Source: an uncultured virus (IMG/VR IMGVR_UViG_3300025646_000023)
Taxonomy: Duplodnaviria > Heunggongvirae > Uroviricota > Caudoviricetes
Virus record (IMG/VR): IMGVR_UViG_3300025646_000023
DNA length: 20,000 nt
Strand: one strand, 5' to 3'
The notes under the pieces are model-generated. The model did no database searches. It saw nothing but the letters and a program-made list of their open reading frames with translations, and was not told where the DNA came from. This document shows positions 4,105-19,870 of the stretch, in pieces (position 1 is the stretch's first letter; each line of letters begins with the position of its first letter). A program made the translations under genes and the position numbers.

Positions 4105-4106
4105 TC

Positions 4107-5624: not shown

Positions 5625-5639
5625 AGAAGAAGTAATTAA

Positions 5640-5789: not shown

Positions 5790-5868
5790 GACTTCCTCCT
5801 GGGATCTGTATTCATTTATACAGTAACAGAAGGTCCGAGGTATGCGTAGTTCACATTGCTACCAAACA

Positions 5869-6036
5869 ATGTCCGACTTTCACAGTCCCTTCATGGGTTG
5901 GATCGTTCCTCACCCCTGGCAAGAACCAGAGGAACATGAGGACAATGATCTTCTGGGTGATGGCTTCATCACCTATGACATGATCCCAGAAGACAATAGT
6001 GATTATGACGACGAGGGAGAATTCACCCTCCGTTAA
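5869..6036 (+). CDS. small acidic hypothetical protein, 55 aa
   Basis: Internal ATG of track ORF 5842..6036; very D/E-rich. Confidence 0.6.
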   Translation: MSDFHSPFMGWIVPHPWQEPEEHEDNDLLGDGFITYDMIPEDNSDYDDEGEFTLR

Positions 6037-6070
6037 ATCACCACCAAACCTTCCGCTTTTGCACATCACC

Positions 6071-6367
6071 ATGTCTTACAACATCCTTGAGATCAATGAC
6101 TTCCATAGCCTGATCTACGCCATGGAAAAGAGAGTTAAGCAACTCCTCATTGATGATCAGAGAAAGCCTGAATGGAAGGCTGAACCGTACTGGTCTATGG
6201 AGATCATCGAAGATGAGATCCTGCCAGCACTGGAGAAGTACCTTGCAGTCTGGGATGACGATCCGACTCCTCAGTATCTGTACGACAACGATGGAGGTGA
6301 GCCTCCCATCAGTGCAGCGGAGCGTCACCAGGCTGCATGGAAGCAGCATCAAGAGATGCACTCCTGA
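6071..6367 (+). CDS. hypothetical phage protein, 98 aa (...DPTPQYLYDNDGGEPPISAAERHQAAW...)
   Basis: Internal ATG of track ORF 5999..6367 after a TTTGCACAT leader. Confidence 0.8.
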   Translation: MSYNILEINDFHSLIYAMEKRVKQLLIDDQRKPEWKAEPYWSMEIIEDEILPALEKYLAVWDDDPTPQYLYDNDGGEPPISAAERHQAAWKQHQEMHS

Positions 6368-6383
6368 CTTCCGTCTAAACAAC

Positions 6384-6422
6384 AAGGGTGCTAGTACACA
6401 TCTACTAGTGCCCTTTCCTTTT
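6384..6422 (+). terminator. 13-bp hairpin with pyrimidine tail (terminator or processing site)
   Basis: AAGGGUGCUAGUA(6384-96)/UACUAGUGCCCUU(6403-15) followed by UCCUUUU. Confidence 0.55.
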
Positions 6423-6432
6423 CCTCAACACC

Positions 6433-6561
6433 ATGGCTAACAAAGACAAAGTATTAACGGACATTCGTGGAGGCAATAAATCTATTCCTCTCAAGCGTCA
6501 ACGTCCTAAATCCAAATCCAATTTTGCATTAATCAAACAAACCAATACCAAATCTAATTAG
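6433..6561 (+). CDS. small basic protein, 42 aa (MANKDKVLTDIRGGNKSIPLKRQRPK...)
   Basis: ACACC-ATG leader; stop 2 nt before the next ATG; translated by hand. Confidence 0.6.
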   Translation: MANKDKVLTDIRGGNKSIPLKRQRPKSKSNFALIKQTNTKSN

Positions 6562-6563
6562 CC

Positions 6564-6902
6564 ATGACTAAGAAGAAGAAATCTGGTCGTCAAGAAACCT
6601 TGCCTGTCAAGGATTACGACACCAAGATCAAATACATCATGGATCATTTCAACTTCACCAAGGTCCATGATGCAATGCTTGCTCTGGACTGGAAGTGGCA
6701 ACATTCAAATGATCTAGAAGATCAAACTACTCGCGTTCCAAACATTGAACGCATCAAAGAGACTGCCCGTTATCTTCTCTATAAAGCAGCAACAGAGAAG
6801 GAACGCCACTGGGGAACAGGTGGTTTTGAAACCAGACGTTTTATGTCGGGTGAACTAAGCCTCATGTTTGTCCTTGCTGAATACCACTCTTGTAACGATT
6901 AG
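6564..6902 (+). CDS. hypothetical phage protein, 112 aa (IMDHFNFTKVHDAMLALDWKW...GTGGF)
   Basis: ORF track; motif I recall from phage hypothetical proteins. Confidence 0.8.
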   Translation: MTKKKKSGRQETLPVKDYDTKIKYIMDHFNFTKVHDAMLALDWKWQHSNDLEDQTTRVPNIERIKETARYLLYKAATEKERHWGTGGFETRRFMSGELSLMFVLAEYHSCND

Positions 6903-6913
6903 TCTCCAGAACA

Positions 6914-7114
6914 ATGTTTAAGATCCTTCAAACAGTCCATCACAATGATGGCAAAGATCCACATCGAACTTGGTATACAACAGAAACTAACTTATATACA
7001 GCTTTAGATCTAGTTGAAGAATATAATCAACGTAATCACCAAAGTAATCAAGATGAAAGCAAGATACCAATCACTTATCACATTGAGTACGCACCAGAAC
7101 TAATGAATGGCTAA
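6914..7114 (+). CDS. hypothetical protein, 66 aa
   Basis: ORF track; tight tiling. Confidence 0.7.
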   Translation: MFKILQTVHHNDGKDPHRTWYTTETNLYTALDLVEEYNQRNHQSNQDESKIPITYHIEYAPELMNG

Positions 7115-7448
7115 CCATCCTCAGTTCTTTATCCATCGCAACAAGAACAAATCTCTCATCATCAAAACCATGAACAACATTGAATGGGAATCCAACGACA
7201 ATGCCAAGGATCTCAGCAAGACTGATGCACCAACCATGCGTCAGTTGGCTGGGATGCAACTTGTCGCCAGGATGAAAGAAGCAGCAGACAAAGCAGGTGC
7301 TGGCTTTGTTGGTGGCTTCATTGATGAGAATGGTAATCGCTTCATGATGTCAAACATCAGTGAAGATGATATCCAAACTCAATACATCATGGAAAAACTA
7401 GATGAATATAAGCGTGAACTAGAAGAGGATGCACCAGACTGGAAGTAA
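7107..7448 (+). CDS. hypothetical protein, up to 113 aa
   Basis: ORF track; overlaps the previous stop; an alternative start at the internal ATG (MNNIEW) is possible. Confidence 0.75.
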   Translation: MANHPQFFIHRNKNKSLIIKTMNNIEWESNDNAKDLSKTDAPTMRQLAGMQLVARMKEAADKAGAGFVGGFIDENGNRFMMSNISEDDIQTQYIMEKLDEYKRELEEDAPDWK

Positions 7449-7466
7449 GCCTACCTTACTTCAGTT

Positions 7467-7790
7467 ATGTACAACGTCTGGAATGCAGCTGCCTATGAAA
7501 TAACGAACATCCTCATCGAATACAAACGTTCTTTAGAACTTAATCCTTTTATCAAAGCTATCCGTCTCCATTGCTTCCCAGACTGGGTGGCATGGAAGAC
7601 AGAACGTACCATGAAGAACGTTGACAAACAAATTGCAAAGCTCCAAGAGCAGATGCAAATTGAACATGATAAGAAATATGTAACACCTATCATCAGGGAA
7701 CACAAACCTGATGAATCCAAGGCGCAACAGCTACTTGGCGGTACATTACAAATCACAGCACCCTGGTACAAACCAGAACCTAAAGAGTGA
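7467..7790 (+). CDS. hypothetical protein, 107 aa
   Basis: ORF track; short coiled-coil segment. Confidence 0.75.
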   Translation: MYNVWNAAAYEITNILIEYKRSLELNPFIKAIRLHCFPDWVAWKTERTMKNVDKQIAKLQEQMQIEHDKKYVTPIIREHKPDESKAQQLLGGTLQITAPWYKPEPKE

Positions 7791-7805
7791 TTCCGTGTAC
7801 ACTGC

Positions 7806-8090
7806 ATGAACCTCTATACCTTCGCCGTCAAGACAATGAAGATGCGTCAATCGCCAGCTGATCAGAAACAAGAACAATTTGTTGAAGCATTACGTAATGT
7901 CCATTTCAAAATTACGAACCTCCTTGAGGATCCTCTCTTTATTGATAGTATTCACGGCGAACAAGAGATGGGTCTTGACCTGGCTCTTGACCTCATTGAC
8001 AACATCATTGCTCGCATCGAAATCAAGGACACCCAGCCTCAAGCTAACTTGATGGATCAACTGGAACGTACTGCAGTCGATGCAACCTGA
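7806..8090 (+). CDS. hypothetical protein, 94 aa
   Basis: ORF track; tiling. Confidence 0.75.
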   Translation: MNLYTFAVKTMKMRQSPADQKQEQFVEALRNVHFKITNLLEDPLFIDSIHGEQEMGLDLALDLIDNIIARIEIKDTQPQANLMDQLERTAVDAT

Positions 8091-8213
8091 GACTCATAAG
8101 AATCAGTTACATGTAACGTACGAACAGTCCACTCCAGGCTGTGATCCTAAACTACTTCAGCCGTGGTCCTCCTGTATCTGCAGTTGGATCACGGTCTTTT
8201 TGCACACAATCCA

Positions 8214-8603
8214 ATGTTCTCACCATCTGAATACCTCACAAATCTCAGGCAGATCAGTCTCCTCAATGGCCTCGTGACGCCAAGGGGACAGATGCCTGCC
8301 ATCCCTCCAATCCCTCAAATGAATGTAGGGCCTGGAATCCCTGTTGTTGCAACGGTTCCGCCAGCTGGTGGAGAATGTAACGACATGATTGGATTCCTTG
8401 CTACCTCATCTCTTGGCCTCAAGATTGCAGCCATCGTTGGTACTGCATTGATTGTTGCCTACTTTGTCAAGAAGTATGGCAAGACAATCCTTACTGGCCT
8501 ACGTGGCAAGATCCAACAGATCCTTGCTTCCATTGAGAACAAGATCCGCAAGCAACGTACTGTTTACCTGCTTGCTCCTGCTCCATCGATGGTGATCGGC
8601 TGA
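8214..8603 (+). CDS. hypothetical membrane protein, 129 aa (MFSPSEYL...)
   Basis: Internal ATG of track ORF 8163..8603, after hairpin 8161-8194 and TTTGCACAC; TM segment IAAIVGTALIVAYFV. Confidence 0.75.
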   Translation: MFSPSEYLTNLRQISLLNGLVTPRGQMPAIPPIPQMNVGPGIPVVATVPPAGGECNDMIGFLATSSLGLKIAAIVGTALIVAYFVKKYGKTILTGLRGKIQQILASIENKIRKQRTVYLLAPAPSMVIG

Positions 8604-8872
8604 TGGTTTACAGAACCAAGGCACATCATTTCTACAAAGGCAATGCCAAGTTTGCCCGCACCAAACAGTTTTGGACTGTATGGCGCAAGGTACGGATGGT
8701 CATTGGCATCATCTATGACAGCTGCTCAGTCATCTTGGTACTCATGAGTCTTGACAAGATTTATAAGTTCAAGAGCTGGCGCGTTGTCAAACCATGGCAA
8801 ATCGCTACCCTTGTGGAACGCATTCCAAAGCTGTTCAAAACCTTAAGACACCACTTCACTTATGGGATCTGA
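8603..8872 (+). CDS. basic hypothetical protein, possible membrane protein, 89 aa
   Basis: TGATG coupling with the previous gene. Confidence 0.65.
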   Translation: MVYRTKAHHFYKGNAKFARTKQFWTVWRKVRMVIGIIYDSCSVILVLMSLDKIYKFKSWRVVKPWQIATLVERIPKLFKTLRHHFTYGI

Positions 8873-8936
8873 CCCTCTCCAGTAGGACCAAACCGATAGG
8901 AAAAACTTAAGGTTACCTTCACGTTTGCTTATCGAT

Positions 8937-8984
8937 CCATTGCTACGCTAGTTTGCCTACAAACCCTGTCGTAGCAATGGTTTT
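8937..8984 (+). terminator. probable intrinsic terminator
   Basis: CCAUUGCUACG(8937-47)/CGUAGCAAUGG(8970-80), inner GUUUG/CAAAC stem, then UUUU. Confidence 0.55.
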
Positions 8985-9057
8985 CACTTCTACACAACAC
9001 CGTACTTGGACAGGTTTGTGCCCTCGATAATTAATTACCGGATGGAAAATATCTCCC

Positions 9058-9225
9058 ATGGAATCCAATATGAACACACAAGGAAAACTGGCTTGGGCAA
9101 TCCTTGCTCAACGACCTGACGGAAAGAGCGAAGTCATTAAGATCACTGATCACGAAGAAGCTGATCAGGCTGTCAAAGAAAACCCCACTCTTTGGTACAA
9201 GAGCGGTCCATTTGTGTTAATCTAA
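9058..9225 (+). CDS. small hypothetical protein, 55 aa (MESNMNTQGKLAWAILAQRPDGKSEVIKI...)
   Basis: Translated by hand, ATG 9058 (or 9070) to TAA 9225; globular composition. Confidence 0.65.
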   Translation: MESNMNTQGKLAWAILAQRPDGKSEVIKITDHEEADQAVKENPTLWYKSGPFVLI

Positions 9226-9280
9226 GTCCACTCCGGGGATCATCCTCGTCACTGATCCCTGGGGAACCTAACCAAACCTA

Positions 9281-9490
9281 ATGAAACTTCCCGTGACTGC
9301 TTACATCGTCATGATGCACCATGCTGATGTAGGTACTTTTGCTCCTGCTTTCCCAAACCTAGACGATGCCATTGAGTTCTCCAATGCCATGCGTCTTATC
9401 AATGATCAACTGTGTGTAGCAGAACCAGTCCCCCTGGTATCAACTGTGTCGCCAGGTGTAAGCAAAGTTATGGACTGGGTTGATCACTGA
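9281..9490 (+). CDS. hypothetical protein, 69 aa
   Basis: ORF track. Confidence 0.7.
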   Translation: MKLPVTAYIVMMHHADVGTFAPAFPNLDDAIEFSNAMRLINDQLCVAEPVPLVSTVSPGVSKVMDWVDH

Positions 9491-9513
9491 TTACGACAAA
9501 AGAAAAGAGTAAG

Positions 9514-9548
9514 AATCTGTGTTATCTTGTATCGAGGTAACACAGATT
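9514..9548. promoter_or_regulatory. 11-bp inverted repeat directly upstream of the RHH-like gene (operator or terminator)
   Basis: AATCTGTGTTA(9514-24)-N13-TAACACAGATT(9538-48); ATG at 9553. Confidence 0.55.
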
Positions 9549-9552
9549 TTTT

Positions 9553-9801
9553 ATGGCAGTCGTACTATCCGTTAGTATCCCAGATGATATGCACTCCAGG
9601 TGGAAAACATCTGGACTTGATATTAGTCCTAGTGCAATCTTTCAAAACGCACTTGAGTCTCAACTTACAGAAACAAATCAACAGCTAACTTACTGGAGCA
9701 ACCGTGCATTAGCTGCTGAAAAGAAATTGAAAACCATTGAGAAGTTACTACTTGCCAATGATAAAGAAATTAAGAAGTTCCTTTACTTTGATGAGATGTG
9801 A
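9553..9801 (+). CDS. ribbon-helix-helix (CcdA-like) DNA-binding protein, 82 aa
   Basis: 'LSVSIPDDMHSRWKTSGLDISPSAIFQNALESQL' matches the beta-strand/helix/helix pattern of CcdA-type RHH; C-terminal coiled coil. Confidence 0.65.
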   Translation: MAVVLSVSIPDDMHSRWKTSGLDISPSAIFQNALESQLTETNQQLTYWSNRALAAEKKLKTIEKLLLANDKEIKKFLYFDEM

Positions 9802-9865
9802 TTCTCCTTACATCTCAAACCAACATTGTTCGGTAAGCTACAATGAACAATAAATAACAAGGCAC

Positions 9866-10048
9866 ATGTCCGATAGGTCGTACCTTACTCTTACTGACGA
9901 TCAACGTCTTGATATTGCAAGCCTCTTGACGACCTTGAAAGGTATGGGTATCGTCCGTAATGAAACAGATTTCCAGCGGTTTATCTCTGGTTGTTTCTTC
10001 CGTGGTCTTTACGAATACAAAAAGGATTTATCCCGTAATGACTGCTAA
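9866..10048 (+). CDS. hypothetical protein, 60 aa
   Basis: ORF track. Confidence 0.65.
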   Translation: MSDRSYLTLTDDQRLDIASLLTTLKGMGIVRNETDFQRFISGCFFRGLYEYKKDLSRNDC

Positions 10049-10077
10049 ACTGTTTCAACGACACGCACTCAACCAAG

Positions 10078-10641
10078 ATGCAAAAGGAATTTGATTCCGT
10101 CGATCTCGACAAACTAAACAAGATCCACTCTGCTATTGGTTTACCTGATAAACCTGAAGGATACGTAGAAGATAAAGACGACGAGATTATCGAACCTGAT
10201 GTGGCTCGTGAATGTGGTGAATGCAACCTATGCTGCCACGGCTGGTTATATGCTGAAGTCTTTGACCAGGTTCTAACCTATGGTTCACCTTGCCATTATG
10301 TTGGCTGTAATGGATGCACCGTTTACGAACAACGCCCTGAAGATCCATGCCGCGTTTACAAATGCGTCTGGCTCCAGGATGGAACGTTCCCTGAATGGAT
10401 GAAGCCTAGCCAATCAAAGCTGATTGGTAGCTGGCGTAAGTGGAAACATAACGGCGAGCTAGAAGATTACATTGAAGTATGTGAATGCGGTGACATTATT
10501 CGAGGTCGTGATCTTCAATGGTTGATCACTGCATCCAAAGAACAAGAACTGAACATCATGTATATGGTGGACGGTAAGCGTTATGCAGCAGGTAGTGATG
10601 CATTCGTCAAATGGTTTGAAGAAGATTTCGAGTGGCTATAA
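10078..10641 (+). CDS. CxxCxxCC (YkgJ-like) Fe-S/zinc-chelating protein
   Basis: CGECNLCC, PCHY...GCTVYEQRPEDPCRVYKCVW cysteine pattern. Confidence 0.8.
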   Translation: MQKEFDSVDLDKLNKIHSAIGLPDKPEGYVEDKDDEIIEPDVARECGECNLCCHGWLYAEVFDQVLTYGSPCHYVGCNGCTVYEQRPEDPCRVYKCVWLQDGTFPEWMKPSQSKLIGSWRKWKHNGELEDYIEVCECGDIIRGRDLQWLITASKEQELNIMYMVDGKRYAAGSDAFVKWFEEDFEWL

Positions 10642-10694
10642 ACAAACTATTAAGACAATATAAATAACTTAATAAATAATTAAATCTATTTGAA

Positions 10695-10732
10695 GAGGCT
10701 GGCAGTACTACTGACTAGCCTCATTTTATTTT
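10695..10732 (+). terminator. intrinsic terminator
   Basis: GAGGCUGG/CUAGCCUC stem with inner CAGU/ACUG, followed by AUUUUAUUUU. Confidence 0.65.
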
Positions 10733-11016
10733 GCAAACAAATCTCAAAAACATTCCCCTTGGAGAACGGCCCACCGCCACGTAAGAATATTAGATATATA
10801 CATAACAATATAACTAACAATAGATACATATGTACCAATACATACTCCAATACATACCCCACCTAATAGATAAAAAAATGGACCGGGCACCACCCCAGTC
10901 CAATTCCTACTTTGCACACACAGCCTTCAGTATTCCTTTCTGAAGCTGCATTGCCAGTCTAGAGCGCCGCCGCTAGTATTTGCAAGCAAACGGCGCAAAT
11001 CCATTGCACACGTACC

Positions 11017-11442
11017 ATGCCCTTTCAATTCCAACCTGTTCAGCTCCTTGAACTCTCAGAAGCTGACGCCCCTTCCATCGATGTTCAAGATGGAAAGATG
11101 ATCCTCACTGCACAACGTGGTAACGAGCAGATCCGTATCACTGCTCCTCTACATCACGTCATGCCCCAGGTCAAGGCAACTGAAGTCAAGATGCCAAAGA
11201 CCCGACGCAAAGGTGTCCCACTTCCTGGTGGTGATAAGCGCGTTGGTGAACTCAACGGCATGGCTAAGCTCAATGAACAACACGTCCGTGAGATCCGTCT
11301 CATGATGAGCGATCCAAAATTTATGGCCAGCTTTCCTTCCAAGCAAGCAATGCTAGAAGAGATCTCAAAAGCTTATGGCGTTCACGTGGCAACCGTCAGG
11401 AACGTCATTGAAAACGTCAGCTGGAAGCACGTCAAGATCTGA
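11017..11442 (+). CDS. DNA-binding protein with the C-terminal HTH typical of phage HNH endonucleases, but no nuclease domain
   Basis: 'GELNGMAKLNEQHVREIR...ISKAYGVHVATVRNVIENVSWKHV'; no H-N-H motif upstream. Confidence 0.7.
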   Translation: MPFQFQPVQLLELSEADAPSIDVQDGKMILTAQRGNEQIRITAPLHHVMPQVKATEVKMPKTRRKGVPLPGGDKRVGELNGMAKLNEQHVREIRLMMSDPKFMASFPSKQAMLEEISKAYGVHVATVRNVIENVSWKHVKI

Positions 11443-11834
11443 TGGAAAAAACGTACAGTATCTTGGTTCAGTTCGGAGATGGCAAACCCATGCCATCTAA
11501 GATCAGAGCAAAGAATGGAATTGATGCACAAGATAAAGCACTTGCTGCTAACCCTGGTGCACGTTCCATCCGCGTTACTGGTGTCTTAGATATCCATCCA
11601 CCTAAGGCACCACGTATTGCCAAGACAAAGCCCAAGGAGCCTGAGCATCCATTGTTTACTGATGTTGATCAGGAAACAATGAATAGTTATCTCAGGTCTT
11701 CTCCTCAAGAAAGTAAACTACAGGTTTGCCACCAGCTCAGGAGAGCAGGTCTCACCTATAAAGCAATTGCTCGGCAGTTGGGTATGGGTGAAACAACAGT
11801 CAGAAGTTGGATTAAAAACACACTTACTTCTTGA
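11442..11834 (+). CDS. helix-turn-helix DNA-binding protein
   Basis: C-terminal 'LRRAGLTYKAIARQLGMGETTVRSWI' HTH; TGATG-coupled. Confidence 0.8.
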   Translation: MEKTYSILVQFGDGKPMPSKIRAKNGIDAQDKALAANPGARSIRVTGVLDIHPPKAPRIAKTKPKEPEHPLFTDVDQETMNSYLRSSPQESKLQVCHQLRRAGLTYKAIARQLGMGETTVRSWIKNTLTS

Positions 11835-11871
11835 CATCTAGTAGTAGTATAAAGCAGCGTTAGTTGCTTTT

Positions 11872-12078
11872 ATGGAAACCTGTAGTGAAGATGGTCTCAC
11901 CGTTACCTTTAACGATGAGACCAATATTTTTACGTTTGAATGGGATGAAGAAACCCATCCAGAATACAACTTTCTTAAAGATTTGACCGGTGATGATTTT
12001 GCTACCATGATGCGCGAGTACCTTGCTACTTTGGATACCCCAACCAATGGCTCCCAGTCTGCCTCCAGTCCTGCCTAA
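11872..12078 (+). CDS. small acidic hypothetical protein, 68 aa
   Basis: ORF track. Confidence 0.7.
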   Translation: METCSEDGLTVTFNDETNIFTFEWDEETHPEYNFLKDLTGDDFATMMREYLATLDTPTNGSQSASSPA

Positions 12079-12367
12079 GTTCAAACCAGGTGATCGCGTA
12101 GCAGAGCGGCCTAAAGCTTCTCTGCTTTCTGCGGTGCGCACTGAAGTAAGAGAATCAATCAAACAATACACAACTCACAGACGTGGTGTTGTGGTTGATA
12201 ACACAATCAAAGTTCTTACTTCAAGGAATGGTCGAACCAGTAGGGTTTGTTATGTCAGTATCCTTTGGGATGGATTGAAAACTCCTTCTCAACATTCACA
12301 GATGCGCATCTGTTTGGAGTCTGAATATGAAAAACTCCGTGAAGATTACTATTCACTAATGGAATAA
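12047..12367 (+). CDS. SH3/KOW-like small beta-barrel protein (FKPGDRV...ILWDG), paralog 1
   Basis: Internal ATG of track ORF 12023..12367; FKxGDRV motif. Confidence 0.75.
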   Translation: MAPSLPPVLPKFKPGDRVAERPKASLLSAVRTEVRESIKQYTTHRRGVVVDNTIKVLTSRNGRTSRVCYVSILWDGLKTPSQHSQMRICLESEYEKLREDYYSLME

Positions 12368-12372
12368 ATCAC

Positions 12373-12705
12373 ATGACACATCCAATCATCCCATCTGCTA
12401 ATCTCATTCTCCAGTGGCGTGCACAATGGCAGAATGATAACGAAGAAATAGAACTAACTAACTTGATTTACCAAGCTGCTCGCTGGGGTGCTGATCAGGA
12501 ACTAGAAGCCTGTTGTGATTGGTTAGAAAGTAACCAAGCTGTAGATCCAGAAGAAACTGTAGAAGGACTTTACGATGAACGTCGTGGTAACTGCTTAACA
12601 GTTAAAGAGCAGGCGTTACACGCTCTTGAAGTTTTAGTAGAAGAAGGACTTGATAAAAAGTCTTACGACGTTATTCTTGATGCTCTTGAATCTTTACCCG
12701 ATTAA
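12373..12705 (+). CDS. hypothetical phage protein (AARWGADQELEACCDWL motif), 110 aa
   Basis: ORF track; motif I recall from cyanophage hypothetical proteins. Confidence 0.8.
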   Translation: MTHPIIPSANLILQWRAQWQNDNEEIELTNLIYQAARWGADQELEACCDWLESNQAVDPEETVEGLYDERRGNCLTVKEQALHALEVLVEEGLDKKSYDVILDALESLPD

Positions 12706-12725
12706 AACCATCACAACCAACAACA

Positions 12726-12983
12726 ATGAGTGGTAAAGCTAGGCGTGAATTTAAGGTTGGTGATCGCGTTAAGTATAACAAAAAAGGAATGTCAGGTCCT
12801 CTCTCACCAACAAGCAAACCTCACACAGTCTTCCCCAGTCGCTTAGGTGAAGTAACCGGAATCTTTATTAAAGAAGATAGCAAAGGTTACAAACGTAAGT
12901 GGATTCAAGTACTCTGGGATGGTGCCGTCCGTTCTAGTGATCACGCTAGTCAACGTTTAGTTTTTGAAAATGAGGAATGCTAA
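12726..12983 (+). CDS. SH3/KOW-like small beta-barrel protein (FKVGDRV...VLWDG), paralog 2
   Basis: ORF track; similar to 12047..12367. Confidence 0.75.
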   Translation: MSGKARREFKVGDRVKYNKKGMSGPLSPTSKPHTVFPSRLGEVTGIFIKEDSKGYKRKWIQVLWDGAVRSSDHASQRLVFENEEC

Positions 12984-13637
12984 ATGAGCATTGTTGAACT
13001 CATCTGGAGAACGCCAGATGCAGAAGCTTTAATTACAAAGATGGCTCGTGTCTCTGCGCCAGCTAACGAAAATAACATGGAGACAGCTCCTAAGTTGTTA
13101 CGTTATCTGATTAAGAATGCACACTGGTCGCCATTTGAAATGGCAAACATGTGCGTAGAAATCCACACAACTCGTGCTATCTCTGCTCAGATCTTACGCC
13201 ACCGCTCATTTTCATTCCAGGAATTTAGCCAGCGCTACGCAGATATTAATCTGCTTGGTTCAACCTATGTTCCTCATTTACGTCGTCAAGATCTAAAGAA
13301 CAGACAAAACTCTGTTGATGATCTTGATGCAGAATTAACTGGTCAATTTTACAGGCGTATCAGTACACTCTTTGAAGAGAGTGAACATCTTTATAAGGAG
13401 ATGGTAAGCAAAGGTGTTGCTAAGGAATGTGCTCGTAGCATTCTTCCCCTTGCATCTCCGACTCGTTTATACATGAATGGTTCCTTACGTTCCTGGATTA
13501 CTTATCTATCTCTACGTGAGAAGAATGGTACTCAAATGGAACACATGCAGATTGCAAAAGATATTAAAACGATCTTCTGTGGGCAGTTCCCCATCATTGC
13601 AGAGGCCCTGGGCGGCAGCGACCCCTGGGAGATTTAA
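12984..13637 (+). CDS. thyX: FAD-dependent thymidylate synthase
   Basis: HWSPFE, 'QILRHRSFSFQEFSQRY' ThyX signature (RHRx7SxR), 'ECARSILP', 'TQMEH'. Confidence 0.97.
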   Translation: MSIVELIWRTPDAEALITKMARVSAPANENNMETAPKLLRYLIKNAHWSPFEMANMCVEIHTTRAISAQILRHRSFSFQEFSQRYADINLLGSTYVPHLRRQDLKNRQNSVDDLDAELTGQFYRRISTLFEESEHLYKEMVSKGVAKECARSILPLASPTRLYMNGSLRSWITYLSLREKNGTQMEHMQIAKDIKTIFCGQFPIIAEALGGSDPWEI

Positions 13638-13664
13638 TATAGATGCTTCCTCCAGGGGCAGCCC

Positions 13665-13820
13665 ATGGATGACGACAGCCTGAAGACAGCTGCTCTTGCA
13701 GCTTGGTTAGACATTGTTTACGGTGGACAGGACATGCGAGAGTACACCTACTCCCTGCGTGTTATCCGTCGTGCAATAGAGAAAGTACCAGAACATATAA
13801 AGATTACAGAATCTGATTAA
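13665..13820 (+). CDS. small hypothetical protein, 51 aa (MDDDSLKTAALAAWLDIV...VIRRAIEKVPE)
   Basis: Translated by hand; resembles the C terminus of 12373..12705. Confidence 0.65.
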   Translation: MDDDSLKTAALAAWLDIVYGGQDMREYTYSLRVIRRAIEKVPEHIKITESD

Positions 13821-13877
13821 CTGCCTGGGCATCCTTTGGAGTAAGTCCCAGGCTTTGTTGTATTTGCACACACCACG

Positions 13878-14819
13878 ATGGACAACACAACCCAAAACAA
13901 ACTACCAAAGGTTCCTGAAAAAGCGCTTGAAGCTTTGAAGGCTGGTATTCAATCTGTTCTTGACTCGAAGGATTGGATTGGTTTTCTTTCTGCCATCAGG
14001 CAGATCCATGATTACAGCTTCAATAACAAGCTCCTGATTATGCTTTCGCAACAGAAGCGTGGCTGGCCGTTCAGCCCACTTGTTGCAGGCAGGAGTAAGT
14101 GGAATGAGAAATTTAATCGGCAGCTTAAGGAAGGAGAATTTACCAAACCGATTTGGATTCTTGCGCCAGTCCTTATTGACAAGCGCGACGAGAACGGCAA
14201 TGTCATTCGGAAGTCGGATGGCACGCCCGAGAAGCTTGCTATTCGGTTCCGTGGAGTCAAGGTTTACGACCACCATCAAACCCACGGGGATCCAATCCCC
14301 GAACCAGATACCTCCACGATGTTAGCCCAATTGGATCAGAATGCTCCGGCTGAAGTGCTCTGTGGCATGTATGGTGTTGCAGAACGTCGCTCTGTTCAAG
14401 TCCTCACCATTGGTGAACAGGAACTAGGTAGAGCACTAGGCCGCTGCTGGTTTGAAAATAGTGGTCGCGCCAGTAGAATTGAACTGCGTAGTGACCTGAA
14501 CACTGCAACCATGATCAGTGTCCTGGCCCATGAGCTAGGCCATGCCATCCTTCACAACCGTGATGAGTACCAGGAGCATGACTCGTCCTCGATCAAAGAA
14601 CTTGAAGCAGAGTCAGTCGCGTATCTTGTTTGTTCTTATTACGGTTTGGATCTTGGTGGTCGTAGCTTCCAGTACATTGTTCATCACAACGTTGCGTCTG
14701 ATGATGTCGTAGCTGACCTACTCAAGTCAGGTGATCGGATCTTCCGTGCTTACCAGGAGATCATTACAACTGTTGATCAGTTAGTTCACCAAGAAACCAA
14801 ACAGCTTCTTGCTGCTTGA
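13878..14819 (+). CDS. ardC: ArdC-like antirestriction protein: ssDNA-binding N-terminal domain plus zincin metallopeptidase-like domain
   Basis: 'HDYSFNNKLLI..Q', 'W...R..K.GE', 'F....VYD..QT.G' ArdC-N motifs; HELGH and 'ELEAESVAYLVC..YGLD' zincin motifs. Confidence 0.85.
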   Translation: MDNTTQNKLPKVPEKALEALKAGIQSVLDSKDWIGFLSAIRQIHDYSFNNKLLIMLSQQKRGWPFSPLVAGRSKWNEKFNRQLKEGEFTKPIWILAPVLIDKRDENGNVIRKSDGTPEKLAIRFRGVKVYDHHQTHGDPIPEPDTSTMLAQLDQNAPAEVLCGMYGVAERRSVQVLTIGEQELGRALGRCWFENSGRASRIELRSDLNTATMISVLAHELGHAILHNRDEYQEHDSSSIKELEAESVAYLVCSYYGLDLGGRSFQYIVHHNVASDDVVADLLKSGDRIFRAYQEIITTVDQLVHQETKQLLAA

Positions 14820-14925
14820 GTTAAGAGCTAAGCCGTGTGTGGAACCACGGCTTTCTCACTCTCTCAGCTTGGACCAAGCCTCTCGGAGCAAGGTCTTAAC
14901 CGCAGCTAAGATGCGGGTAACGCCC
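14820..14925 (-). ncRNA. candidate small structured RNA or multi-hairpin intergenic element
   Basis: GTTAAGA(14820-26)/TCTTAAC(14894-900) encloses AAGCCGTG/CACGGCTT and GCTTG/CAAGC; CCGCA/TGCGG (14900-16); minus-strand TATACT at 14935-30. Confidence 0.35.
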
Positions 14926-14959
14926 ATGAAGTATAAAGGGCAACAGAATTTTACCACCA

Positions 14960-15256
14960 ATGAAAGGCTTTATCGCCACGAAAGAACAACAAAAACAAGC
15001 AACCTATTGGATTGCTTGCTATGCCAAGAATAATGAGGATGAACCTATTGGTGTCACTAAAAAACTAATCACTTACAAACCAGGTCAAAGTAAAGACAAA
15101 GCAATCCTCAAGTACTGCACAGAACTTATGCAGCTCAACCGCACCATCTGGGAAATCCTTGTTCATCAAGGTCCAGACCAAGTGCCAGAGCACGGCGACC
15201 AGATTACACATCGTCTCAGCCGTGAGCGCTTCCAGGGCTCGACAACCAAGATTTAA
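14960..15256 (+). CDS. hypothetical protein, 98 aa
   Basis: ORF track. Confidence 0.75.
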   Translation: MKGFIATKEQQKQATYWIACYAKNNEDEPIGVTKKLITYKPGQSKDKAILKYCTELMQLNRTIWEILVHQGPDQVPEHGDQITHRLSRERFQGSTTKI

Positions 15257-15261
15257 CCTTT

Positions 15262-15267
15262 TATAAT
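15262..15267 (+). promoter_or_regulatory. sigma70 -10 box upstream of the large ncRNA candidate
   Basis: Perfect TATAAT; the structured region begins 6-7 nt downstream. Confidence 0.55.
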
Positions 15268-15272
15268 TTCTT

Positions 15273-15517
15273 TGGTTCTGCAGACCACACCAGTGGCCAC
15301 TGGTTACTCATCCAAGCGGATGATCGCCGATATCACAGAGTGGAAGCTGTGATGTCAGACAACGATGAAGCAACGAGAGGAGTAGGGGCCGACCCCTACT
15401 TAATATCCGTGAACGGGATCCTCTCTAGCTTCAGAGTAACCCGCCAATTTGGATTGGACGGTACTGTTGACCGCGATACCGAAGCCACAGCGTAGGCCGG
15501 TGCGCTAAATTCCACCA
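15273..15517 (+). ncRNA. large (~245 nt) multi-helix, pseudoknotted ncRNA candidate of unrecognised family
   Basis: At least 10 compatible helices plus loop GUGGAA(15340-45)/UUCCAC(15510-15) pseudoknot; G-U pairs favour the + strand; lies in a 410-nt gap between longer ORFs. Confidence 0.7.
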
Positions 15518-15665
15518 GTTACGATTTGCTAAAGCTTCTTGCTCCTTAAAATAAGGAACACCCCGATAAGTTAATTGAGTCATGGCTGCTGCCACATACT
15601 CTTAACTATAAGAATTTGTATTAATTACTACAGTTTATACTGCAACACTAAGTCTTAAGTTAGTA

Positions 15666-16205
15666 TTAAGAATTAGAAACAACATCTTGCTCTGTTAATT
15701 GATTTTTCAATTCAGGTTGTCCAGAAACAACTAGATCATAGTGATCCTGGCTAAAGCAGATTCCACTATAGTCTTTAGCTACACAATGAGGTTCAACACC
15801 GTTGAGCCATTTCTGAACTGATAAAAACACGCCGCCACCAGGTCCAATAACAGCGCCATGTTTATTGTTTGGTTTAACTCTAATCACATGGCCACGTGCT
15901 TTACATACTCCCGATTCATCAACTTCTAATTCTTCATCTGAGTGTAGATACTTTCCTTCAAAAGAAAACTTAATATGACCACCTAGATAAACTTCATAGC
16001 TATCAACATTTGGGTGAGTATGTTCAGGAATAATTACACCTTCCGGTACAGAAAACATCTGTACTTGATAAGGTGCTTTCCTATAAAGCAATGTTGAAGT
16101 AACTTCTCCGATCTTCCATACACTATTTGCTTTTGGTACTGCCCAGGTACACGGCATTTCTTTTAGCACATACTTTAAAAAAACTGACAGATCGTCGATC
16201 TTCAT
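15666..16205 (-). CDS. cupin-fold protein
   Basis: 'IPEHTHPNVDSYEVYLGG' cupin motif 1 (HxH...E) and 'IRVKPNNKHGA' motif 2; AT-rich and opposite in orientation to its neighbours. Confidence 0.75.
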   Translation of the reverse strand: MKIDDLSVFLKYVLKEMPCTWAVPKANSVWKIGEVTSTLLYRKAPYQVQMFSVPEGVIIPEHTHPNVDSYEVYLGGHIKFSFEGKYLHSDEELEVDESGVCKARGHVIRVKPNNKHGAVIGPGGGVFLSVQKWLNGVEPHCVAKDYSGICFSQDHYDLVVSGQPELKNQLTEQDVVSNS

Positions 16206-16235
16206 CTTTAAAGATTAAAACTTTATAGGTACTAT

Positions 16236-16343
16236 AACGGGGCGCAGCCGCACCAATGAGGGCACGGCTGTTCAGTTACCAGCAGAAGGAAACCACAAAA
16301 ACTTCTGCTCCCCAGGCCTGACGTGGTTCTTCTTCGGCCCGTT
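16236..16343 (-). ncRNA. candidate ~108-nt pseudoknotted RNA (sRNA or 5' leader of the cupin gene)
   Basis: Terminal helix 16338-43/16236-41; stems 16302-09/16281-88, 16318-21/16272-75, 16261-70/16245-54; pseudoknot 16323-29 with loop 16290-96; internal G-U pairs favour the minus strand. Confidence 0.55.
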
Positions 16344-16352
16344 GTTATAATA
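16343..16352. promoter_or_regulatory. bidirectional -10 element: + strand extended -10 TGTTATAAT, minus strand TATTAT
   Basis: TG-N-TATAAT at 16343-51; the reverse complement reads CTATTATAAC; lies between divergent units. Confidence 0.6.
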
Positions 16353-16381
16353 GGTTCTATGTGCTTTACAAGAACCTTACC

Positions 16382-16612
16382 ATGGCCTTATTATCTAAAC
16401 CAAAAATCATAGGGAGAGTAGCCTGTGATTCCGGTTCAATCGCTCTTGTTGATCCGTCTTATCTCGAAGTATCAGCCACAGATACTGTTCAGCTTCCTAA
16501 CTGGAATCTGTTTACTTCTGTTGATACTGAAGTTGGAGATGGAGAATTTGTTGTCTATGCTCAACGTGACAGCCGTGGCTGCTTGCGTCGTGTCATCATT
16601 GAAATTGAATGA
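16382..16612 (+). CDS. hypothetical protein (DUF4241-like 'VACDSGSIALVDP' motif), 76 aa
   Basis: Internal ATG of track ORF 16361..16612. Confidence 0.7.
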   Translation: MALLSKPKIIGRVACDSGSIALVDPSYLEVSATDTVQLPNWNLFTSVDTEVGDGEFVVYAQRDSRGCLRRVIIEIE

Positions 16613-16761
16613 CTTCTGCAATTATCTTTCTCTTCTGGTTCTTCGTTAATATAATCTTTCTGTTTAACTTTAATTTACCTGCTGGCTACCTTGTCGTCGT
16701 CAACCTATCGTTTATAGTGGCCAGTATGCTTTCAGATTCTGAGCAACAGAACCGTCTATGA
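16609..16761 (+). CDS. small two-TM membrane protein, 50 aa (MTSAIIFLFWFFVNIIFLFNFNLPAGYLVVVNLSFIVASML...)
   Basis: ATGA overlaps at both ends; translated by hand. Confidence 0.7.
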   Translation: MTSAIIFLFWFFVNIIFLFNFNLPAGYLVVVNLSFIVASMLSDSEQQNRL

Positions 16762-17036
16762 CCTTACTGCTTGACCCTAGGCGTGAACCTAACCGCTGGC
16801 TTGCTGCCATGTTTGATCACCTTATCCAAGTAGGTGATGCTGATTCTCTTGAATCTTTACGATCTGGTTACTATCAGCTATGTAATGTCATTGAACCTGG
16901 GTTGATTGAGAGCCTGTTTGAACCATGGATTGAAGCATATCTTCAAGGACTCCAGGATAAAAGTCAACCCGAAAACATTCAAAATATTGTTGGCCCACCA
17001 AAGGAGCTGATGGATCTTCCGGAACCACTGGAATAA
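16758..17036 (+). CDS. hypothetical protein, 92 aa
   Basis: ORF track; ATGA-coupled. Confidence 0.7.
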   Translation: MTLLLDPRREPNRWLAAMFDHLIQVGDADSLESLRSGYYQLCNVIEPGLIESLFEPWIEAYLQGLQDKSQPENIQNIVGPPKELMDLPEPLE

Positions 17037-17490
17037 TCCGTCCCATCTCATATAAAGGATCACCAACATAAGGTGGTCGATGCCACCAAAAACGTTTCTT
17101 CTCCAGGTCTGCAATAGCATCTGGATTATTTTTTGCCCAATAGTAATAAGCTCGAAACTGTTTGTCGGGTTGACTGGATTGACAATCAAGATACAAACAG
17201 TCGCCCGGTTCTAGAACCCAACGCATACGTAAAAGAACATTGCAAGCTTCTATCAAAGGTTTAATGCCACCTTTTCCTGTGAGGTGGCTTTTCATATTGT
17301 TAGTTCTTTTGTTTTTCTTTTCTTTGTACCAGTCATTAAGTTGACGTTTTGACTTACTAATACCTACATGAACTTGCCAGATCCAAGCATCACCTGACCA
17401 TGGTTTTAATGGCGTAAGAACAATCTTGCAGTACTGTTGATTGATCTTAAAAGTAGTAGTGCTACGCTTGCGGCATACTCTATAGGTCAT
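16888..17490 (-). CDS. hypothetical protein, 200 aa
   Basis: Longest ORF over 17037-17490; globular, Trp-rich; its 3' end overlaps the convergent gene. Confidence 0.7.
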   Translation of the reverse strand: MTYRVCRKRSTTTFKINQQYCKIVLTPLKPWSGDAWIWQVHVGISKSKRQLNDWYKEKKNKRTNNMKSHLTGKGGIKPLIEACNVLLRMRWVLEPGDCLYLDCQSSQPDKQFRAYYYWAKNNPDAIADLEKKRFWWHRPPYVGDPLYEMGRIIPVVPEDPSAPLVGQQYFECFRVDFYPGVLEDMLQSMVQTGSQSTQVQ

Positions 17491-17493
17491 GAT

Positions 17494-17775
17494 TTGGACG
17501 ATCTAATTCAAACAATCCAACAGGATCAGGAGCTTTGGGATATCGTAGAACGCCTGAAGAATCCTGATGAGGATCTGGAAGATTTCTTGCTCAGCATAGC
17601 TCATATGTTTTCCATTGAGTTTCAAGAACTTCATAAGACAGATCTCTCTGACAAACTGGCTTCTTTGTTTGGTGGACTACCAAGCAAGTCACTGATCATG
17701 GCACCGATGCTGCTGCACATTGCATTGGATATTTTTCTAATGCGTGCCATTCCCGAGCATTTAGAAGAGGTGTGA
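17494..17775 (+). CDS. hypothetical helical protein (start uncertain: TTG 17494 or 17437)
   Basis: Track ORF 17437..17775; TTG 17494 avoids overlap with the divergent gene. Confidence 0.7.
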   Translation: MDDLIQTIQQDQELWDIVERLKNPDEDLEDFLLSIAHMFSIEFQELHKTDLSDKLASLFGGLPSKSLIMAPMLLHIALDIFLMRAIPEHLEEV

Positions 17776-17776
17776 G

Positions 17777-18010
17777 ATGCAACGCGGTTATGTCCTGTGT
17801 AATCACGATCTATCCCACGTACTTTGTTTCACGCCAGGGAAAGACGGGGTTGTTTTAGAAGATGTTAGCAGTACAAAAGTACTGAACAAAGCCATGTGCT
17901 TGCATGATCTGACAGAAGCAAAAAATATTTCACAAAGACTTCAGGATAAACAGCTGACAGCTGATCTTGAAATTGTTAACGTAGCTCGTCTCTACAACAA
18001 GTTCTTCTGA
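17777..18010 (+). CDS. hypothetical protein, 77 aa
   Basis: ORF track; GAGGTG upstream; tight tiling before the polymerase. Confidence 0.75.
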   Translation: MQRGYVLCNHDLSHVLCFTPGKDGVVLEDVSSTKVLNKAMCLHDLTEAKNISQRLQDKQLTADLEIVNVARLYNKFF

Positions 18011-18022
18011 TCCAGTACCAAT

Positions 18023-19870
18023 ATGAGATTAGTATTGGACCTTGAGAGTAATGGGTTGCTTCCAGAAATGGATACAATCCACTGCATTGTGCTGCGTGAT
18101 CTTGATACTGGTAATATCATTAGCTGTGCTGATCAGCCTGGTTATCACAGCTTAGAAACAGCATTAGATTTTATAAAAGAAGCAACACTAATTGTCGGTC
18201 ATAACGTTATCAAGTTTGACCTTCCTGCCCTTAGAAAAATATATCCTTCTCTACAACTTAAGTCAGGTGTTAAATACTACGACACTTTAGTTGTTAGCAG
18301 GGTTATGTGGCCCGAACTAGAGCCAGTGGATGCCTCTAAGTTCTCTCACATCCCTCGTAAATACTTCGGTCGCCACAGTCTTGCAGCATGGGGTGAGCGG
18401 CTTGGTGTTAGCAAGATTAACTTTAAAGAAGAGAGTAAGAAAGATGATGAAGAAGTTAAAGACGTGTGGGAAAAATGGACACCAACAATGCAAACTTATT
18501 GTGAAGGTGACGTAGAAGTATCGACTAGACTATATGAATATCTTTCCTGTCAACATCTTGATGTTAGGTGTAATGAACTAGAGCATGAATTTGCTTTAGT
18601 AATGGCTAGGCAGGAAGCATTTGGGTTTCCCTTCAATGAAAAGGCAGCCTATGCGTTGGTCAACACGCTCAAAGCTCGACGCTCTGAGCTTGAGGATCAA
18701 CTCCAAGATACCTTCCCGCCAATCGAGGAAGAGCGCTGGTCGGAAAAGACTGGCAAACAACTTAAAACGAAAGTTACTGTATTCAATGCTGCTTCCAGAC
18801 AGCAGATTGCAGAGAGGCTTCAAAATAAATATCCGGAGATTCGATTTGAATCGACTGAAAAAGGGAGCCCTAAAGTTGACGATGATGTTCTCGAAGTGCT
18901 GGGTCAAAAATACCCAGAAGCTAAGTTGCTTGCAGAATATCAACTGTTTAACAAAAGACTTGGCCAAATTGCAGAAGGCAAAGAGGCGTGGTTAAACCAC
19001 TGTAAAGTTTATAAAGATGGCCGTATTCATGGCGAAGTTATTACTAACGCTTGCATTAGTGGCAGATGCAGCCACAAGCGTCCAAATATGGCCCAAGTCC
19101 CCAGTGTTGGTCACGCTTTTGGAGATGAGTGCCGGGCTCTGTTTTATGCTCCTGATGATTGGATGCTGGTTGGTACTGATGCTTCTGGACTAGAACTCAG
19201 AGCACTGGGTTCCTGGCTTGCTTACTTTGATGAAGGTGAGTACGCCAGGCTAGTTAGTACAGATGGTTTTGATATCCACACATACAATGCCAAACTCTTT
19301 GGGATCTACGATGGTGTGGGTGAGATCAGCAAAGCAACTCGTGATCTTTCGAAGCGGCTTATTTATTGCATCTTGTATGGTGGCGGTGCAAAAAAGACTG
19401 GATCCATTATATCTCCTGATGAAGATGCCGATACCCAATACAAGCAGGGTAAGAAAACGATTGATACGTTTTATAGGAACTTACCTGCTATCAAGAAGCT
19501 TAAAGATCTCATCGAAGAACGCATTACGCAACGCGGTTATCTTACTGGTATTGACGGAAGAAGGTTACAAATTCGCTCTAAACATTCGGCACTCAACCAA
19601 CTCCTCCAATCCACTGGAGCAATTGCAGTAAAGAAAGCTACTACTATTCTCTATGATGATCTAACAAATAAAGGATTAGTCTTTGCAAAAGACTGGGGCT
19701 TTGTTGCTCATGTCCATGATGAATATCAATCTTTAGTTAAACCACAATATGTAGATCTCTATAAACAATTAGCTATTGATTCTTTTAGAAAATCAGGTGA
19801 GTACTTCCAACTTAAGTGTCCACTAACAGGTGAGGCACGAGTAGGAAAGAACTGGAAAGAAACTCACTGA
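18023..19870 (+). CDS. polA: T7 gp5-like family A DNA polymerase with 3'-5' exonuclease
   Basis: Exo I DLESNGL, Exo II GHNVIKFD, HSLAAWG, Exo III YCEGDV; motif A DASGLELR, motif B RDLSKRLIYCILYGGG, motif C HVHDE. Confidence 0.97.
   Translation: MRLVLDLESNGLLPEMDTIHCIVLRDLDTGNIISCADQPGYHSLETALDFIKEATLIVGHNVIKFDLPALRKIYPSLQLKSGVKYYDTLVVSRVMWPELEPVDASKFSHIPRKYFGRHSLAAWGERLGVSKINFKEESKKDDEEVKDVWEKWTPTMQTYCEGDVEVSTRLYEYLSCQHLDVRCNELEHEFALVMARQEAFGFPFNEKAAYALVNTLKARRSELEDQLQDTFPPIEEERWSEKTGKQLKTKVTVFNAASRQQIAERLQNKYPEIRFESTEKGSPKVDDDVLEVLGQKYPEAKLLAEYQLFNKRLGQIAEGKEAWLNHCKVYKDGRIHGEVITNACISGRCSHKRPNMAQVPSVGHAFGDECRALFYAPDDWMLVGTDASGLELRALGSWLAYFDEGEYARLVSTDGFDIHTYNAKLFGIYDGVGEISKATRDLSKRLIYCILYGGGAKKTGSIISPDEDADTQYKQGKKTIDTFYRNLPAIKKLKDLIEERITQRGYLTGIDGRRLQIRSKHSALNQLLQSTGAIAVKKATTILYDDLTNKGLVFAKDWGFVAHVHDEYQSLVKPQYVDLYKQLAIDSFRKSGEYFQLKCPLTGEARVGKNWKETH

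Follow-up and report, generated by a model that had tools for sequence, protein, structure and literature searches.

Whether the DNA between two oppositely oriented gene groups of an uncultured virus encodes a structured RNA, and if so, where such an RNA would begin and end and how it would act, is the question raised by the locus described here. The locus lies in a 20,000-nt window (the whole stretch of DNA that was analysed) of the Caudoviricetes record IMGVR_UViG_3300025646_000023, between a run of plus-strand genes and two minus-strand genes, a 50-aa open reading frame (ORF) and a cupin-like ORF. A first-pass annotation of positions 15262-15520 had proposed a pseudoknotted non-coding RNA (ncRNA) of about 250 nt, possibly a ribozyme, headed by its own promoter. 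In this study, comparative analysis revealed a conserved structured ncRNA that is considerably shorter, at 15274-15433 on the plus strand. A free-standing RNA gene at these positions, whose product would act in trans through its folded molecule, is the explanation towards which we lean, if only modestly.

Fold and conservation of the RNA

The predicted RNA opens with four hairpins on its 5' side (H1-H4) and continues into a three-way-junction domain (P5-P8), so that eight helices are counted in all, as listed below.

15274-15433, plus strand: structured ncRNA core, 160 nt; 5' end deduced from promoter geometry, 3' end set at the last conserved helix
15274-15286, plus strand: H1, 5'-terminal hairpin GGUUCUGCAGACC; invariant in 35 main-family sequences
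15290-15303, plus strand: H2, perfect palindrome CCAGTGGCCACTGG; 100% paired, 3 of 5 pairs changed on both sides
15309-15322, plus strand: H3, variable hairpin; 95.2% paired, 5 of 5 pairs changed on both sides
15329-15356, plus strand: H4, 10-bp hairpin; 94.0% paired, 8 of 9 modelled pairs changed on both sides
15363-15373, plus strand: conserved junction CGAUGAAGCAA, which gives P5 its 5' strand; columns invariant or nearly so in alignments A1, A2 and A6
15366-15433, plus strand: 3' domain, a three-way junction closed by P5 and P6 and holding P7 and P8
15366-15371 with 15428-15433, plus strand: P5; 82.8% paired, 0 pairs changed on both sides, varying on one side only
15375-15381 with 15419-15425, plus strand: P6; 7 of 7 pairs changed on both sides
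15382-15399, plus strand: P7, loop CCGA; 4 of 7 pairs changed on both sides
15406-15417, plus strand: P8, loop UGAA; 2 of 4 pairs changed on both sides

The fold was assessed on alignment A4, which comprises 35 distinct main-family sequences with 46 modelled pairs and 1545 pair cells. Standard pairs occupied 91.1% of these cells as against 75.0% in shuffles, a level that none of 500 shuffles reached, and 29 of the 46 pairs were changed on both sides. The covariation score was 0.443, compared with 0.169 in shuffles and 0.066-0.097 when the partners were slid by 1-3 columns. RNAalifold, run unaided, recovered H2, H3, H4, P6 and P8 with 22 of 33 pairs compensated, and a plain MAFFT alignment agreed on the covariation. 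The 258-nt flagged stretch also folded better than its shuffles (z -4.56 on the plus strand and -4.12 on the minus strand), as did the 160-nt core (z -4.45). The covariation check that had been proposed with the first-pass annotation came out strongly in favour of an RNA, and by the generic standard of compensated pairs above controls the element is a conserved structured ncRNA.

An A-C cell on one strand corresponds to a G-U cell on the other, and the paired cells contained 114 G-U against 22 A-C (79 against 22 without the invariant H1 pair), which places the structure on the plus strand, as had been predicted. The RNA was 136-176 nt long, with 17, 9 and 9 sequences in the three length classes modulo 3, and the plus-strand stop-free stretches within it ranged from 24 to 54 aa. 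These variations indicated that the RNA is not coding; in particular, the plus-strand ORF of 47-51 aa (47 aa in the first-pass annotation), whose codon-type conservation would have spoken for a protein, was not conserved. A conserved micro-ORF starting at the AUG within CGAUGAAGCAA was also considered and rejected, since neither its stop position nor its length was conserved and ACG replaced the AUG in one sequence (from L043).

Several elements of the fold deserve closer description. The core of H1 is TCTGCAGA or TCTGATCAGA, each palindromic, and in a divergent subfamily (subfamily 2, described below) H1 is the perfect hairpin GCUUCUGCAGAAGC, which supports H1 being a hairpin. H2 was a perfect 14-16-nt palindrome, centre included, in all 46 distinct sequences of the family, with covarying arms around a GGCC, GCGC or AGCT centre. 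The loop of H3 is AAGC in the window and UCCUCGUC or UUCAGG(C) in relatives, a few of which lack H3 altogether. The H4 loop AGUGGAAG at 15339-15346 was conserved, with GUGGAAGC nearly invariant, and the unpaired conserved sequence comprises GUGGAAG of this loop, the junction CGAUGAAGCAA and the P7 loop. The 3' junction domain occurs as two interchangeable sequence types. In A4, sequence types of the 5' hairpins were found in mixed combinations with those of the 3' domain (for example in L206, L220, L225 and L226), which suggests recombination between RNA variants.

The family comprises 46 distinct RNA sequences from viral and metagenome contigs, in addition to a copy in a cyanobacterial assembly (G067:C165). 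Six loci retrieved as relatives of the neighbouring DUF4278 gene and one retrieved via the upstream p98 gene (both described below) were 77-86% identical to the window across the whole intergenic region, and more distant loci retained blocks of it. A search pattern drawn from the invariant blocks returned 16 viral stretches, namely 13 real members and 3 chance matches, while all 34 metagenome stretches returned by a stricter pattern matched the covariance model R1. This model, trained on 14 sequences, hit the window at 15274-15434 with 158.5 bits and by itself found L050, a locus outside the training set, at 76 bits. Its specificity was supported by two controls: none of the 3 chance viral matches fitted R1, and a looser pattern run on genomes of bacteria and archaea gave roughly 150 chance-level matches, of which 120 loci were fetched, none of them fitting R1. 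Among 151 genomes of the cyanobacterial phylum, R1 made one weak match (33.4 bits). This match, a member of subfamily 2, is the copy in the cyanobacterial assembly, and it sits on a short contig downstream of a gene labelled, by eye, as terminase-like. A third pattern added one further main-family member and 10 further subfamily-2 loci, so that subfamily 2 numbers 11 loci. A cyanobacterial genome carries a near-identical copy (95%) of a subfamily-2 RNA, and the remainder of that genome gave this RNA only chance matches of 15-20 nt.

Upstream of the RNA, the following promoter elements were recognised.

15239-15244, plus strand: -35 hexamer TCGACA, within the last codons of the p98 gene
15262-15267, plus strand: -10 hexamer TATAAT

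Separated by a 17-nt spacer, the two hexamers (15239-15267) agree with the consensus at 11 of 12 positions, and the promoter claimed from TATAAT was in this sense borne out as a motif. A TAnnnT -10 box ended exactly 6 nt 5' of the first G of the RNA in all 35 distinct upstream regions (TATAAT in 23), and a -35 box with at least five of six matches to TTGACA was found in 22 of the 35 (TTGACA itself in 5). Where the -35 box overlaps the C-terminal codons of the upstream protein, it reads TCGACA (Ser-Thr) in one group and TTGACA (Leu-Thr) in another with a differing C-terminus. Subfamily 2 carries an extended -10 element, TGCTAAGCT, at the same distance from the RNA start. Judged by motif, a sigma-70-type promoter appears to be kept at a fixed spacing, as would befit an independent gene. 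This placement, taken together with the strand asymmetry, argues that the RNA is most likely transcribed rightward from a predicted start at about 15274, and host RNA polymerase would begin the transcript at the GG of GGUUCUG.

No match at gathering score to Rfam 15 was obtained anywhere in the window with 4227 models, which take in tmRNA, RNase P, group I and II introns, manA, wcaG and ribozymes as well as 6S, Y RNA and phage pRNA. At E <= 10 on 15100-15700, the only hit was a meaningless one to snoZ152 (17.4 against 50 bits), and the element in five diverse family loci likewise matched no Rfam model. Resemblances to segments of 5S and 23S rRNA and to CRISPR repeats were dropped, as they fell on non-conserved positions and no Rfam rRNA model matched. 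Hence, the claim that no known family is involved held, and judged against Rfam 15 the RNA is a new family of a known kind, the phage-encoded structured ncRNAs. The family may nevertheless have been listed before among the 10,006 viral structured RNAs predicted in a 2023 survey by Fremin et al. (PMC10690425): six family contig identifiers were absent in a comparison confined to tables among its supplements. Like the present element, CyVA-1, manA, wcaG and PhotoRC, which are Rfam motifs from cyanobacteria and cyanophages, are conserved structured RNAs of aquatic viral sequence without an assigned function, but none of them matches it. The sole trace is a sub-threshold CyVA-1 match (22.5 against 41.4 bits, E 0.38) elsewhere in one locus (L044:1248-1331), in the divergent region upstream of its DUF4278 gene, and this may be due to chance.

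The DUF4278 gene on the opposite strand

The RNA ends well short of 15520, and the 3' third of the flagged stretch proved to be part of a minus-strand protein gene with upstream elements of its own.

15431-15583, minus strand: DUF4278 (IF17/gifB-like) gene, 50 aa, stop included; its stop codon shares 3 nt with the 3' end of the RNA
15605-15610, minus strand: candidate -10 box TATAGT of the DUF4278 gene
15618-15631, no strand assigned: GTAN8TAC box (NtcA-type), 7 nt upstream of the candidate -10 box

The translation of this ORF, MTQLTYRGVPYF...WWNLAHRP...LRYRGQQYRPIQIGGLL, matched Pfam DUF4278 marginally (E 1.8e-5, 25.5 bits against a gathering cutoff of 25.3) and also matched phrog_5049. The marginal score was backed by relatives that back-translated searches identified in 23 viral loci (56-100% identity) and by conservation of the codon type. 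Namely, in 22 distinct full-length coding sequences the variable sites at the three codon positions were 29, 20 and 46 of 50, and the codon differences from the window were 386 synonymous versus 187 non-synonymous, a pattern which indicates that the gene is under purifying selection. The cyanobacterial factor IF17 binds glutamine synthetase and inactivates it, and C-terminal residues are required for the binding. DUF4278 has been tied to IF17 (gifB), a glutamine-synthetase inactivating factor; the host genes lie behind glutamine riboswitches, and short DUF4278 proteins lack the C-terminal part of IF17, according to PMC6212724. As stated in PMC11288750, gifB homologues are recognised via DUF4278, and gifA lies tail-to-tail with glnA. 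A phage-encoded copy was not described in the accessible portions of the literature found on DUF4278 or on cyanophage inactivating factors. For the phage DUF4278 gene, no solved relative was found.

NtcA represses gifA and gifB. GTAN8TAC, the NtcA consensus (PMC3898017), was present in all 33 distinct DUF4278 upstream regions (15584-15640 of the window and loci L037-L232), placed at -48, at -57/-58, or at -17 to -21 from the ATG, and TATAGT or TACAGT stood at the same place as the candidate -10 box in most of them. The 20-kb window contains 7 such boxes (3901-19641) against 2.55 expected, a number reached by 2 of 200 shuffles; in the RNA promoters none was found (0 of 35). These boxes suggest that the host nitrogen regulator controls the phage DUF4278 gene; together with the identity of this partner gene, they point towards cyanobacteria as hosts and towards a nitrogen-linked control of the gene.

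The presence of this gene bears directly on the pseudoknotted model, whose helices were examined on alignment A6, consisting of 25 distinct relatives with the gene order of the window. All the listed helices exist in the window as standard pairs, and a good part of those lying within the 160-nt element were substantiated: the helix GAUAUCACAG/CUGUGAUGUC was 92.3% paired with 6 of 10 pairs compensated, AUCC/GGAU had 3 of 4 pairs compensated, and GUAGGGG/CCCCUAC and GAGAGGA/UCCUCUC were conserved with changes on both sides. UGGUU/GACCA was conserved as well, although it is uninformative, being nearly invariant; GAAGC/GCUUC, counted as conserved, was likewise uninformative with only 68.8% paired. 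The helices GGUUACUC/GAGUAACC (47.5% and 56.3% paired) and AUCG/CGAU (50% and 36%) and the AGCG/CGCU pseudoknot (56%) were not maintained. CACC/GGUG and GUGGC/GCCAC were never changed on both sides, their 3' halves being codons of the DUF4278 gene, and the latter also competes with the local perfect palindrome, which is 100% paired. CGGUA/UACCG, with no change on both sides, and CCAAU/AUUGG, with one pair so changed, fall inside the DUF4278 gene.

The second pseudoknot, GUGGAA/UUCCAC, could form in 98.7% of cells, yet each strand owes its invariance to something else; UUCCAC, for one, is complementary to a pair of invariant Trp codons in the DUF4278 gene. In addition, the loop change in two sequences was left without compensation, and loci without a downstream DUF4278 gene lack the partner. 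The same Trp-Trp codons account for the ending ...UCCACCA that had been likened to a tRNA end (CCACCA, 15511-15516, is their complement); ARAGORN found no tRNA or tmRNA in the window, and a tRNA, tmRNA or tRNA-like identity was rejected. For a ribozyme, nothing spoke beyond structural complexity, and no ribozyme family matched. Accordingly, although every pair of the ~250-nt pseudoknotted RNA or ribozyme over 15262-15520 can be drawn in the window, its 3' partners lie within conserved opposite-strand coding sequence, its enclosing helices and pseudoknots were never changed on both sides, several of the enclosing helices were only 36-56% paired, and the family exists without that downstream sequence. 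The model is thus largely refuted, and we regard it as very improbable.

The association with DUF4278 also raises the matter of the glutamine riboswitches. RF01739 and RF01704 are, like the phage RNA, structured RNAs with a three-way junction and an association with DUF4278 (PMC6212724), but they reside in the 5' untranslated region (UTR) on the strand of the gene itself, whereas the phage RNA lies on the opposite strand, at the 3' end of DUF4278 or elsewhere, and has no Rfam match even at E <= 10. Neither model (glnA, RF01739; Downstream-peptide, RF01704) matched either strand of 15100-15700, a range that includes the DUF4278 5' region. The identity as a glutamine riboswitch was therefore rejected on the grounds that there is no aptamer match and that the RNA is not in the DUF4278 5' UTR.

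Gene contexts and possible modes of action

The DUF4278 gene was present in the fetched DNA of 46 of the 49 main-family loci, in differing arrangements. In 38 of them (the window and 37 others) it is tail-to-tail with the RNA, its stop codon lying about 0-24 nt from the last helix; in 7 it is divergent and lies upstream, and L050 has it at a distance of 588 nt from the RNA. In 30 of the 49, the gene immediately preceding the RNA is p98. In the 7 loci with divergent DUF4278 and in L073, a co-directional gene follows 66-300 nt after the RNA with no terminator between, this being a GP88-family gene (Pfam GP88, E 2.3e-42) or, in L064 and L215, a 74-aa ORF lying in front of that gene. Beyond the small convergent insert, window-type loci continue with co-directional genes. 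In subfamily 2, the RNA comes after a terminase-like gene and two small genes and faces convergent genes, with no DUF4278 within 1.5 kb. Common to all three contexts are the promoter, nested within the 3' end of whichever gene precedes the RNA, the position just after the upstream stop codon, and the fold. With the promoter and fold alone constant across these contexts, the function would appear to reside in the folded RNA and not in a cis effect exerted on a single neighbouring gene.

Two further features of these loci were observed. Downstream of the RNA in L064, L073, L210, L215 and L221, start codons are immediately preceded by two additional small hairpins (GGAC...GUCC; AUAAGC...GCUUAU) and by repeats of CAAUUCAAUUCA-like motifs. 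In one subfamily-2 locus, an Rfam abiF RNA (L243:2563-2671, minus strand; 51.2 bits against a gathering score of 37) lies beside a tRNA (36.5 bits), about 1 kb from the RNA.

The tail-to-tail arrangement raises the possibility of a cis-antisense or convergent regulator of the IF17-like gene, in which unterminated transcription from the strong RNA promoter into the DUF4278 gene would lower its expression by antisense pairing or polymerase collision and the structured 5' part would stabilise the transcript. The facing DUF4278 stop about 0-24 nt from the RNA 3' end in 38 of 49 loci and the lack of any terminator between the two are in keeping with this, and so is a cyanobacterial precedent, the tail-to-tail gifA/glnA pair in which gifA read-through acts as an antisense RNA (PMC11288750). 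That Nostoc case likewise involves an inactivating-factor gene, but it is mere mRNA read-through, whereas the phage RNA has a separate promoter, a conserved fold and a non-universal arrangement. Moreover, the loci with DUF4278 divergent or 588 nt away and the 11 subfamily-2 loci without it within 1.5 kb speak against such a regulator, and the elaborate conserved fold and loops are needless for simple antisense action. We thus consider this explanation unlikely.

Likewise, the co-directional genes invite an interpretation of the RNA as a cis-acting 5' leader functioning in processive antitermination, stability or ligand-sensing and allowing host RNA polymerase to continue into the genes downstream. 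It would fit with 6 loci in which the GP88-family gene or the 74-aa ORF starts 66-300 nt on, with neither a terminator nor an obvious promoter seen in between, and with the resumption of co-directional genes in window-type loci. A precedent is the HK022 put RNA, a nascent structured RNA just past a promoter (PMC9378689), and the phage RNA resembles it in starting at or near an early phage promoter. The put RNA, which acts on the very polymerase that transcribed it, is, however, only about 70 nt long with two stem-loops, compared with 160 nt and eight helices here, and no relation in sequence or architecture was seen; a put-type antiterminator identity was rejected on this account. In addition, a convergent gene comes next in subfamily 2 as well as in 38 of the 49 main-family loci, most loci have no co-directional operon after the RNA, and no conserved expression platform was found. 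A leader function is judged to be about as unlikely as the antisense one.

The palindromic nature of the 5' hairpins led to a third alternative at the level of DNA, namely that the palindromes at +1 to +30 are operators for a dimeric regulator, or that the hairpin cluster is a bidirectional terminator, an insulator, or an origin between convergent units. The perfect H2 palindrome in 46 of 46 sequences with its three self-complementary centres, the palindromic H1 core, the position at a convergent gene boundary in most loci, and the nearly equal folding of both strands are all compatible with such a role. On the other hand, with 114 G-U against 22 A-C cells the asymmetry speaks for a single RNA strand, the non-palindromic loops and junctions and the promoter are conserved, loci with a co-directional gene downstream have no convergent boundary, and no T-runs follow the hairpins. 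A mainly DNA-level element is therefore considered improbable.

Under the free-standing RNA gene that we favour, the RNA would be a phage regulator that acts in trans, its conserved loops and junction serving for protein binding or base pairing. In this respect, MicL- and DapZ-type small RNAs, whose promoters lie inside the 3' end of an upstream gene, offer a partial parallel; they are short, Hfq-dependent and enterobacterial and end at the mRNA terminator. The promoter of the phage RNA similarly overlaps the last codons of the upstream gene, with the RNA right after the stop codon, but the RNA is phage-borne, has 160 nt and eight helices, and shows no visible terminator.

Several points weigh against this reading. 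No target was found, and duplexes of the RNA with the DUF4278 start region were no better than those of shuffles (mean z -0.11, n=31). No intrinsic terminator was detected at the RNA 3' end in any gene context, an absence equally compatible with a leader, with read-through antisense transcription and with a discrete small RNA. The start, the 3' end and expression itself are deduced from sequence. Furthermore, the alignments behind the pair counts, A4 among them, had been fitted to the model, a bias towards the structure, and their sequences are related, so that the shuffle controls overstate the significance. Finally, the self-complementary centre of H2 is unneeded for an RNA hairpin and hints at a DNA-level or dimerisation role.

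Neighbouring genes and a possible link to nitrogen metabolism

The other genes recognised around the RNA in the window are as follows.

12984-13637, plus strand: ThyX gene
13878-14819, plus strand: ArdC/M78-like protein gene
14960-15256, plus strand: p98 gene, 98 aa, family-less; its 3' end holds the -35 box of the RNA promoter
15666-16205, minus strand: cupin-like ORF, 179 aa
18023-19870: family-A DNA polymerase gene

The DNA polymerase shared about 44% identity with its counterparts in podoviruses of Pseudomonas, Roseobacter and Pelagibacter. The closest record was a 19.7-kb viral contig in which the flagged region recurs with 100% identity, and isolated phages gave no nucleotide or protein match to the RNA region, its 8-kb surroundings, the DUF4278 protein or p98. 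Among 31 loci fetched via the cupin-like gene, the RNA or DUF4278 was found only in the two contigs of the window itself.

The p98 protein is conserved at 98-99 aa with 27 invariant columns among 17 sequences, and it belongs to no family in Pfam, PHROG or NCBIfam. Its structure model was confident (pLDDT 81.6), but p98 as an RNA- or DNA-binding partner was rejected, since no fold in the PDB matched at E <= 0.001 and the T4 Dmd antitoxin rows (E 0.3) are too weak to count as evidence. In loci that lack p98 (L045, L209, L232, L201, L073, L078 and L210), a common CGGGTAACGC motif was observed 5' of the -35 region, followed in some of them by a hairpin GCTCCAC...GTGGAGC.

The tail-to-tail pairing of the RNA with an NtcA-boxed IF17-like gene suggests a possible role in taking over the nitrogen metabolism of a cyanobacterial host. 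In a far-reaching form of this idea, the RNA and the IF17-like protein would make up a two-part phage module that seizes host nitrogen assimilation, with the protein gene wired to host NtcA and the three-way-junction domain of the RNA serving as a new sensor, or as a decoy directed at a signal of nitrogen status or at a nitrogen-control factor of the host, in place of the glutamine riboswitches of the host DUF4278 genes. We offer this proposal as a speculation with little likelihood at present.

Few phage-encoded structured RNAs of this size are so well supported, with eight helices, dozens of compensatory changes, a conserved promoter and a clear strand asymmetry, which makes the RNA well suited to an Rfam entry and to experimental work. 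The H2 palindrome is an unexplained feature of the RNA that could reveal a new recognition principle. Meanwhile, with NtcA-type boxes found at each of the promoters examined, the phage IF17-like domain suggests that host nitrogen metabolism is manipulated by the phage.

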